The notes under the pieces were generated by a model. The model saw only the letters and a list, made by a program, of their open reading frames with translations. It ran no database searches and was not told the origin of the DNA. From NCBI GenBank assembly GCA_020619395.1, contig GCA_020619395.1_4860.1: DNA of 64,000 bases; one strand, 5' to 3'. Source of the stretch: a phage. Position numbers and translations under genes: made by a program. Below are positions 54,138 to 56,089 of this stretch, piece by piece (positions within the stretch are counted from its first letter, which is position 1; each line of letters begins with the position of its first letter).

Positions 54138-54517
54138 GTTGCTTCCTTCTTACTACTATTGCTGCTTCTATTGGTAGTCCACGACATATCCCTCGTGGGT
54201 GGGTTCGGTGTGTAACCGAATAAGTTTTTCTGTTCCCAGGGCAACGCACCAGGCTTAATTGATTTAGTTGGCAAACCAGGAACAGAAAAGGGGTATACAG
54301 ACTAGGGCGCGAGGTGGCTCTGGATGGATGCGTAAGAAAAACCCAAACGGCCCTGGCCTGTAAGTTGGCCCGAAGTCACCGTGTCGGAGGACAGCCCATG
54401 CAGGTAGGCGGCAATGGACACGGTGACCGCGGAAGTGGTTCGTGTTACCCTTGACCCGTGTGTGGATACGCGTCTTAATTCGAATGCCTTCGGGATAAGG
54501 GTAACACAAATGGGGCG

Positions 54518-54661
54518 AGCAAACGGACGGATTCGAACCGTCGAAATATCCGATTATGAGTCGGGTGTTAATTCCTCTAACTTCGCTGCTCTTGCTTTGA
54601 CCGGACTCGAACCGGCGACCTTCCTCGAAGAGGTTGCTCTACCTACCTGAGCTACAAAGCC
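54518..54661 (-). ncRNA. two tandem degenerate tRNA-like elements
   Basis: Element 1 (about 54518-54595): D-arm GTTA/TAAC, anticodon-like arm CCCGA-CTCATAA-TCGGA (CAU loop), T-arm GACGG-TTCGAAT-CCGTC, acceptor pairing imperfect. Element 2 (54593-54661): acceptor GGCTTTG/CAAAGC, D-arm GCTC/GAGC, T-arm GCCGG-TTCGAGT-CCGGT, but anticodon arm and variable region too short. Confidence 0.3.
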
Positions 54662-55706
54662 ATTGTTCATGGCATCATGATAGTTACACTCAACGTACCA
54701 CACCCCTACTGGTTTCCGTTTCGGGGGACTTAACCAGACACCATACGTCCAAGGTCGACGCTTAGGTGTGTTATCAGTTGCCTGACTGGAAATCTCTTAC
54801 GAGACGTCTACGTTGAACCGGCAAGCCGGCCATGATGTGAAGATGGGGGAACGCCCAGGCTTCCGCCCAGTCGAGTGAGGTACGAATCCTTCACTCCTGT
54901 CATCACTGATGGTGACAGCGCTCCCATTGTAAGGTGCCGGTGCATCCCGGCGTGTGTTAGTGCACTCAGCTCCCTCGGGCTTATCTGCGGCAACACGTTG
55001 CCCGGAGCACCGACATATACCACAGTAACCTCGTAAAGTCACTCTGGTATTGTTCGTTGCATACTACTAAGTTATCACGTAAACGATTTCATCACTTCCA
55101 TAAATAATAATTAACCTAAATTCATTTCTGAATGCGGGTGATGGACTTCTTCTTCTGAGCCTGGCCGCAAGGTCAGGTCTTAGCGCCTCCAAGCACCACC
55201 CGCTATCACGTACATTCGTGGCGTACCGGCCGTATGAGGTACCGCGCCTACGGTGACACACAGTCACCCTAACACTGGGAACTCAATCCCATTCGGTTAT
55301 CAGATTGTGGATTTACAGGCGTAGCGTAGCGGCTTAATGGGCCGGTGCTTGCCTGTCCCCTAGGGACGGTTGTCGTGGAGACGCCAGTCTGTAAGTGGGG
55401 CCCTTGCGGGAAAACCCATCGCCTGTAAACCAAACATGATTGAATACCCAGAACCGGACGTTGGAAATCAACATCCTGATGTACTGGAGTATTTCATGCA
55501 TAAACGTGTCTCGTATCGAATGAGGTTATGACCGGTCAGATACCCAGCATCCTGTACAAGCGACCTGGTGCTTTGTGTACCTGGCTGCTACGGATTTATT
55601 GGTCTACCGTAGGTCTGAGCTGCTACCGGCTCATGCGGGACATCAACCCGCACAATCTGAGTAAGTATCATGGCTCGAATAGGGTTAGTGGGCCGAAGCC
55701 CACTGT

Positions 55707-56013: not shown

Positions 56014-56089
56014 TGGCGGGGGCACGAGGTTTCGAACCTCGAACCTTCGGTTTTGGAGACCGGTGCGCTACCAATTGCGCCATACCCCC
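56014..56089 (-). tRNA. tRNA-Trp (anticodon CCA)
   Basis: Hand-folded 76-nt cloverleaf: acceptor GGGGGTA/TGCCCCC, U8, D-arm GCGC-AATTGGTA-GCGC, anticodon arm CCGGT-CTCCAAA-ACCGA (U33, CCA, A37), variable AGGTT, T-arm CGAGG-TTCGAAA-CCTCG, discriminator G, encoded CCA. Confidence 0.85.

Follow-up and report, generated by a model that had tools for sequence, protein, structure and literature searches.

The closest described counterparts of the locus analyzed here are the dimeric tRNA precursors of phage T4, tRNA-Thr/tRNA-Ile(CAU) and tRNA-Pro/tRNA-Ser, in which spacers are shorter than 5 nt, no CCA is encoded for some members, and the two tRNAs are cut apart by RNase P (PMC11143913). Cleavage of the downstream tRNA by this enzyme releases the upstream one, and disruption of tRNA structure lowers the tRNA yield for some precursor variants (PMC11143913). 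With regard to shape, canonical tRNAs have a 7/5 acceptor branch, from which tRNA-Sec (13 pairs), tRNA-His (G-1), and allo-tRNAs of the 8/4 and 9/3 forms are the known departures (PMC5389517). The 8/5 and 9/4 forms of tRNA-Sec and the 8/4 forms of phage tRNA-Ser and tRNA-His are known (Mukai et al. 2017, PMC5389517), one bulged nucleotide has been reported in some 8/4 Cys and Sec tRNAs, and phage tRNA clusters are a known home of non-7/5 structures (PMC5389517). There is also precedent for tRNA-shaped RNAs with other roles: the tRNA-Other of B. cereus is a non-translating pseudo-tRNA with a regulatory phenotype (PMC3399842), and the non-tRNA substrates of RNase P include the C4 RNA precursor of phages P1/P7 (PMC11143913). 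Cleavage of such pseudo-tRNAs and viral tRNA-like modules sets the end of a neighboring RNA. The MALAT1 mascRNA and the tRNA-like RNAs of gammaherpesvirus 68 are likewise tRNA-shaped, are processed by tRNA enzymes, and do not decode.

The locus lies in a 64,000-nt stretch of DNA (GenBank assembly GCA_020619395.1, contig GCA_020619395.1_4860.1; hereafter the window) that comes from an SPN3US-like jumbo Salmonella phage of the genus Seoulvirus and is 98% identical to SPLA1a across 3 kb. Two co-oriented elements, named A and B, occupy the minus strand inside the reduced tRNA cluster of the window. The pair recurs in the genera Seoulvirus, Machinavirus, and Erskinevirus and in one uncultured 240-kb contig, and in all lineages that have it, its position is constant, bounded by a gene for an HslV-like peptidase and a conserved gene for a 273-aa protein. 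In relatives, the same interval is occupied by a complete tRNA cluster (Tyr, Gln, Asp, Ile, His, Glu, and Ser, followed by A, B, and Asn), which is the most variable stretch of the region among them. The cluster of the SPN3US clade has shrunk to tRNA-Trp, A, and B, and permissive Rfam scans between tRNA-Trp and A detected no further tRNA relics. A search of viral contigs through the downstream 273-aa gene returned SPN3US itself alone, and a metagenome scan for a B element of the jumbo phage type yielded four close relatives and no new lineages.

Sequence records treat this locus in four ways. Some leave it without any annotation; that of SPN3US gives A as "tRNA-OTHER" together with an antisense "hypothetical protein"; that of Proteus phage 7 lists the pair as "tRNA-Asp" and "tRNA-Ile"; and those of the SPFM and SPLA phages annotate the antisense open reading frame (ORF) alone. 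The genome paper on the SPFM phages gives one tRNA per genome (PMC6614189), and A and B go unmentioned in the papers examined (among them PMC6614189 and PMC5105663). The features that we assign to the pair are as follows, in window coordinates.

54662 to 54666, minus strand: conserved A-rich 5′ leader ACAAU, directly before A and common to a neighboring RNA, Z (see below)
54592 to 54661, minus strand: element A, a 70-nt anticodon-less tRNA-like gene (Rfam tRNA match of 40.9 bits, fold, and covariation)
54661 to 54655, minus strand: A, acceptor 5′ strand
54652 to 54636, minus strand: A, D arm, GCUC-AGGUAGGUA-GAGC
54634 to 54622, minus strand: A, truncated hairpin in the anticodon position, ACCUC-UUC-GAGGA
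54616 to 54600, minus strand: A, T arm
54599 to 54593, minus strand: A, acceptor 3′ strand
54592, minus strand: A, discriminator base A73
54591 to 54593, minus strand: junction of A and B, A72 and A73 followed by G1 of B with a 0-nt spacer (direct sequence reading)
54516 to 54591, minus strand: element B, putative CAU tRNA of the tRNA-Ile2 type with an extended acceptor stem (Rfam match of 30.6 bits, fold, and covariation)
54591 to 54584, minus strand: B, acceptor 5′ strand, GAGCAGCG
54581 to 54567, minus strand: B, D arm
54565 to 54549, minus strand: B, anticodon arm, with the anticodon CAU at 54558 to 54556
54542 to 54526, minus strand: B, T arm
54525 to 54517, minus strand: B, acceptor 3′ strand, CGU(U)UGCUC
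54516, minus strand: B, discriminator base G73, followed by CC at 54515 to 54514

An earlier note on this DNA had described two tandem degenerate tRNA-like elements at this site and had proposed covariance models and ARAGORN as checks, which gave opposite results. The Rfam tRNA model RF00005, whose gathering threshold is 29 bits, matches both elements as a full model (positions 1–71): A at 54661 to 54592 (minus strand) with 40.9 bits and an E value of 3.2e-5, and B at 54589 to 54518 (minus strand) with 30.6 bits, only 1.6 bits above the threshold, and an E value of 0.022 (E values for the whole window). ARAGORN, in contrast, called neither element in the window, where its sole call was a tRNA-Trp at 56014–56089 on the minus strand and it reported no tmRNA; applied to A in relatives, the program was inconsistent, returning "Pro(cgg)", "Ile(aat)", or "???". 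Assignment to the Y RNA-like family YrlA was rejected because the match reached 15.5 bits against a threshold of 69 and was limited to the D arm. More generally, the Rfam matches to tmRNA, YrlA, and a plastid UTR were subthreshold or antisense echoes of tRNA.

The near-perfect T arms that the note had pointed out are indeed present, as GCCGG-UUCGAGU-CCGGU in A and GACGG-UUCGAAU-CCGUC in B, both with T loops of the UUCRANY type closed by G53-C61. The D arms are present in both elements as well, with GG contained in the D loops AGGUAGGUA (A) and GAGGAAU (B). Because compensatory changes preserve the pair in at least three phage genera, it represents more than a chance resemblance, and we consider it very probable that A and B are selected, structured RNAs of the tRNA family.

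Element B forms a complete cloverleaf. Its acceptor strand GAGCAGCG pairs with CGU(U)UGCUC to give eight pairs and one bulged U, and the cloverleaf with this stem is the minimum-free-energy fold. The acceptor stem had earlier been read as poorly paired owing to a register error, as it starts two bases upstream, at 54591. The note had allowed for a real tRNA if a stem had been misassigned, and this is the case that fits B, which is complete after the 2-nt shift and has orthologs called or annotated as tRNAs; its description of the elements as degenerate applies to A but not to B. The anticodon-like CAU loop with U33 and A37 was seen correctly. It reads CUCAUAA, a 7-nt loop with U33 and a purine at position 37, as in a decoding tRNA. 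The acceptor branch, having eight pairs and a bulge, is not of the canonical 7/5 form.

Comparison of 14 distinct copies of B, which like the copies of A compared here all belong to a single clade of enterobacterial jumbo phages, indicates that this unusual stem is maintained. The 8-bp acceptor is kept in all of them, with 96% of cells paired, and two-sided pair changes occur at five of the eight acceptor pairs and three of the five T-stem pairs. None of 500 shuffles, which ignore relatedness, reached the covariation score of B, and pairing fell to 29–47% in the slid-partner control. Between the window and MET_P1, there are nine differences in B, all of which lie in stems with pairing kept. 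The eighth pair joins G8 to an additional base located between the T stem and the acceptor 3′ strand, and is G-C in 12 of the 14 copies and G.U in the other two. The bulge is present in the Seoulvirus copies and in the uncultured contig L038 and is absent in Machinavirus and Erskinevirus.

The identity of B is suggested by its anticodon arm, CCCGACUCAUAAUCGGA, which includes a C27.A43 mismatch that recurs in 14 of 14 copies. A canonical tRNA with a 7-bp stem on an E. coli chromosome, annotated by NCBI as tRNA-Ile, has the identical arm, as do 38 further viral contigs. B therefore shares its anticodon arm, mismatch included, with canonical phage and prophage tRNA-Ile2(CAU). It differs from these in that they have a 7-bp acceptor, U8, and A73, whereas B has no U8 but a G8 paired with the inserted base, and G73. 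Orthologs of B are annotated as tRNA-Ile2(cat) in pEa_SNUABM_29 and as tRNA-Ile in Proteus phage 7 and pSal-SNUABM-04, and are labeled tRNA-Met(cat) by ARAGORN. Judged from these sequences, B most likely functions as a CAU tRNA of the Ile2 type, albeit one whose acceptor branch is unusual; once charged, as we presume it is, it would read AUA after lysidine modification. The loop CUCAUAA is found in 12 of the 14 copies, the others being CCCAUAC in Huxley and CUAAUAA in an E. coli 222-kb replicon. Since the Huxley copy lacks U33, B may not decode in every lineage. A rationale based on codon usage was also considered and fails, because AUA is not enriched in the genes of the window, where it makes up 8% of Ile codons (4.6 per 1000 codons); codon supply thus speaks neither for nor against B.

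When set beside the allo-tRNAs and tRNA-Sec, B shares an acceptor of more than 7 bp, and the Seoulvirus copies also share the single bulge. However, its anticodon is CAU rather than one for Ser, His, Sec, or Cys. The branch counts 13 pairs (8/5) as drawn here; for an 8/4 form, the outermost pair of the T stem (G.U in 5 of the 14 copies) would have to remain open. The long variable arm of those tRNAs is missing in the window, where the variable region of B is 6 nt. Only the copies of ChrisDB and pEa_SNUABM_6 have such an arm, a paired one of ~25 nt that accompanies the 8-bp acceptor stem and gives an overall shape like bacterial tRNA-Sec or allo-tRNAs, still with the anticodon CAU. We also observed a B-type tRNA at positions 1502–1578 of locus L056, from a "plasmid" of E. 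coli strain 98232 (NZ_CP173450.1; 221,873 bp), a replicon in the size range of a jumbo phage or phage-plasmid. This tRNA has the D arm, anticodon stem, and 8-bp acceptor of B, an AAU anticodon, and no A element upstream.

Element A retains a 7-position acceptor stem, U8, A9, a D arm, a 5-nt variable loop, and a T arm. The G1-A72 mismatch that the note had recorded belongs to this upstream element and is unpaired in 12 of 12 lineages, such that the canonical 7-bp acceptor is not attained. The spacing between D and T arms, noted as too short, is so because 13 nt stand where 17 are expected. This 13-nt arm in the anticodon position carries a 3-nt loop (UUC) in the window, and the corresponding loops of relatives are 3–6 nt long or are replaced by unrelated hairpins. 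A decoding tRNA would have a 7-nt loop with U33 and a purine at 37, and a canonical 7-nt loop with U33 occurs in none of the lineages. Because no lineage has a usable 7-nt anticodon loop, we conclude that A cannot decode.

Each lineage has a hairpin of different length and sequence in the anticodon position, and the stem-loops range from 13 to ~53 nt. In pSal-SNUABM-04 the hairpin is a 17-nt arm with a 5-nt loop, and in SPAsTU, where this hairpin carries an insertion of ~38 nt, it is a branched insert of ~53 nt. Huxley and pEa6 have two hairpins in the middle of A, and in Caitlin, ChrisDB, phiEaH2, and pEa29 the D and anticodon arms have both been replaced by other hairpins. Nevertheless, the minimum-free-energy fold is cloverleaf-like with a four-way junction in 14 of 14 lineages, at lengths of 65–108 nt.

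The acceptor and T helix of A behaves differently. Across 12 distinct lineages, 91.7% of its cells are paired, two-sided changes are found at 9 of 12 pairs, and there are eight different acceptor sequences. The covariation score was matched by none of 500 shuffles; these ignore relatedness, for which the slid-partner control corrects, and pairing collapses when the partner columns are slid. G1.A72, A73, and the T loop are invariant. Point substitutions among the window, SPN3US, Proteus phage 7, MET_P1, and SPAsTU fall at unpaired positions. Because the acceptor and T helix has been kept by compensatory substitutions, A is not in neutral decay. Of the possibilities raised earlier, a pseudo-tRNA or tRNA-like processing signal suits A, which has a covarying helix and in no lineage an anticodon loop. 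The leader of A varies among relatives (ACAAAG, ACAACG, and AUUAAG). By analogy with the late promoter TATG(+1) of phiKZ (PMC7598289), the motif ACAATGG was examined as a recurrent promoter-like sequence and was set aside because it is not enriched, with 12 occurrences in the window versus 9.5 expected.

The best matches of A outside its own group are ~300 tRNA-Thr genes of T4-like phages, with 80.6% identity over 58 nt, and by this sequence relationship A is a descendant of a tRNA-Thr-like gene. A has a 1:72 mismatch together with G2-C71, C3-G70, and A73, a combination that resembles the determinants of formylation. An initiator-tRNA origin was therefore considered but not adopted, given the elongator-type D stem of A and its closest kinship to tRNA-Thr genes. 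In T4-like phages, a CAU tRNA resembling B is found a few bases after tRNA-Thr, and one such pair aligns across the junction of A and B. Moreover, the T4-like gene order Thr, CAU tRNA, (Tyr), and Asn parallels the order A, B, and Asn in relatives of the window.

The two elements had been thought to overlap by 3 nt. They instead abut, since A73 of A is at 54592 and the first base of B is at 54591; their spacer of 0 nt falls within the limit of fewer than 5 nt for two co-oriented tRNA genes. The junction, GCAA of A directly followed by GAGC of B, is almost invariant, and the pattern (G/A)(C/U)AA followed by G(A/U)(G/A)C is conserved in the 15 listed loci with both elements. A occurs without B at no locus, and B occurs without A in the one E. 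coli 222-kb replicon. Scans for sigma-70 promoters and intrinsic terminators found none between or flanking A and B. The pair resembles the T4 dimers in being composed of co-oriented phage tRNA genes fewer than 5 nt apart, of which the upstream one lacks an encoded CCA. Unlike those dimers, the pair lacks an anticodon loop in its upstream member A, has no spacer at all, and shows an 8-bp acceptor with a bulge in its downstream member B.

The best reading of these observations, in our analysis, is that of a two-gene precursor in which A is kept as an anticodon-less structural partner of B, and we hold it with evenly balanced confidence. According to this model, A and B would be transcribed as a single precursor, as are the T4 dimers, and cleavage by RNase P at the 5′ end of B would place the 3′ end of A exactly at its discriminator base. 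Given the unpaired G1.A72 and A73, bases A72 and A73 would serve as single-stranded positions −2 and −1 before B and would supply what a zero-spacer junction would otherwise be missing. A would no longer decode, and its fold would have been retained because maturation of B requires a precursor that is folded and stable. We infer co-transcription, processing by RNase P and at the CCA end, charging of B, and the partner role of A. This reading is supported by the absence of A without B, the zero-spacer junction, and the similarity to T4-type dimers. That A acts mainly as a processing partner is a more tentative proposition, for which our confidence approaches but does not exceed an even balance. 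RNase P normally cleaves a downstream tRNA without need of an upstream one. Because of this, and because B stands alone in one replicon, the conservation of A may reflect a function of its own.

Several further features surround the pair. An unannotated cloverleaf-shaped RNA of ~81 nt, which we call Z, lies at 54844–54924 on the minus strand. Z is closed by the stem GGAGCGC/GCGUUCC, after which come C and CCA, and contains three hairpins, of which the middle one has a T-loop-like AUUCGUA loop and the third a GGAA tetraloop. Its leader, ACAAUG, is the same as that of A. Z matched nothing by ARAGORN or among Rfam families; it is kept in SPAsTU, pEa_SNUABM_29, and Machinavirus, and five of its pairs show two-sided changes among seven sequences. 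Z is located within a 264-nt indel relative to SPN3US (54662–54925, minus strand) that is bounded by the direct repeat ACAA(T/C)GG. SPN3US and other phages whose matches stop at the 5′ flank of A appear to be without this segment, and the matches of SPLA1a, the SPFM phages, MET_P1, and Proteus phage 7 span it. The indel may be the "island edge" at which the earlier note had placed the elements.

Directly 3′ of B are two long hairpins (54439–54510 and 54380–54422, minus strand; folding z-score −2.7), the first with a 14-bp stem, UUUGUGUUACCCUU...AAGGGUAACACGAA. In Machinavirus, Erskinevirus, and SPAsTU, equivalent hairpins whose stems differ in sequence come after the last tRNA. These hairpins could be the 5′ UTR of the 273-aa gene, a processing site, or another small RNA. 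Relatives also have extra elements with an acceptor stem, a T arm, usually an encoded CCA, and odd bodies that detectors miss, located at ~1415–1500 of locus L005 (also in L006, L007, and L011), ~390–505 of L010, and ~865–965 of L057. One example, GGUUCCC...GUGGUUCAACUCCAC-GGGAAUC-A-CCA, lies just 5′ of the leader of A in Machinavirus. This phage group may therefore encode a set of tRNA-shaped RNAs.

Other explanations of the pair were also considered. One holds that the DNA serves as a target for recombination or integration, or marks the border of an indel, and does not act through RNA genes. This would agree with the 264-nt indel, which ends exactly at the 5′ end of A at the repeat ACAA(T/C)GG, and with the variability of the tRNA cluster among relatives. 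We judge it very improbable, since both elements are full-length tRNA shapes rather than 3′ fragments, the phages are described as lytic (PMC6614189), and covariation indicates selection on RNA structure. The remnant of an integration target envisaged in the earlier note is disfavored on the same grounds, the elements being part of a tRNA cluster in a lytic phage. No integrase family was matched among the seven neighboring ORFs scanned, two of which matched nothing.

Even less credible is the proposal that the locus encodes a 78-aa protein on the opposite strand (54414 to 54650, plus strand), corresponding to SPN3US gp263. This frame is open in the window and is listed as a "hypothetical protein" in the records of SPN3US and many SPFM and SPLA phages, but it matches no PHROG family, runs antisense to two Rfam tRNA matches, and is left unannotated in several records. 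Its span is also interrupted in relatives, by a whole tRNA-Asn gene in MET_P1 and by ~38 nt in SPAsTU, and the frame is probably a spurious gene call. A and B might instead be decaying, functionless pseudogenes, remains of an ancestral tRNA cluster that was larger. In favor of this, most of the cluster found in relatives is gone from the SPN3US clade, ARAGORN fails on both elements, A has no anticodon, the stem of B is bulged, and AUA codons are not enriched. However, stems that stay paired through many two-sided substitutions (counted against neutral pseudogenes as nine in A and nine in B), while the loops and anticodon arm of A diverge freely, make this improbable. Neutral decay would not hold complementarity in 12–14 lineages of three genera. 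Likewise, the point substitutions in A described above fall at unpaired positions, and the nine differences in B between the window and MET_P1 fall in stems that remain paired.

The alternative that comes closest to our model takes A to be an autonomous, non-decoding, tRNA-shaped small RNA whose adjacency to B is historical. Such an RNA could act as a decoy or sponge for a host enzyme that targets tRNA, as a regulator like tRNA-Other, or as a tag for tRNA-binding proteins. G1.A72, A73, and the T loop of A are invariant while other acceptor pairs covary, and because of this strictness the constraint on A seems to exceed the needs of a processing scaffold. The four-way cloverleaf survives outright replacement of the D and anticodon arms, the cluster contains further tRNA-shaped RNAs missed by detectors (Z at 54844–54924, and more in relatives), and a regulatory, non-translating pseudo-tRNA offers a precedent (PMC3399842). 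Conversely, A is never found without B, the spacer is zero in all lineages, and the part of A that is conserved least is the very hairpin that might confer specificity. We regard autonomy as possible but unlikely. A resembles the known pseudo-tRNAs and viral tRNA-like modules in having a tRNA-shaped fold without decoding, but tRNA-Other, mascRNA, the herpesvirus RNAs, and C4 are not homologous to it, and A differs from such modules by residing in a phage tRNA cluster, fused to a probable working tRNA.

It is a possible but unlikely proposition that A, and perhaps Z, represent an undescribed class of anticodon-less, tRNA-shaped phage small RNAs with a non-decoding job. In SPN3US-like and Machina-like jumbo phages, this class could provide a decoy for enzymes that recognize the acceptor and T helix, or a tag for processing or localization. 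The phages carrying the pair are related to phiKZ, a phage reported to shield its DNA inside a compartment that resembles a nucleus (PMC7598289). If this proposition is true, no CAU tRNA before B would have had an acceptor branch of 13 pairs (8/5).

Correct annotation of the locus would remove one spurious ORF and add two RNA genes, in place of inconsistent records that give nothing, "tRNA-OTHER", tRNA-Asp plus tRNA-Ile, or an antisense hypothetical protein. With its 8-bp bulged acceptor on a CAU tRNA, B would widen the range of tRNA shapes in phage clusters. A offers a clear natural case in which selection preserves the acceptor and T half of a tRNA and leaves the anticodon half free to drift. 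Amber-mutant genetics are established for SPN3US (PMC5105663), and A would be a tractable model for the use of a tRNA body without decoding, whether as a processing partner, a decoy, or a regulator.
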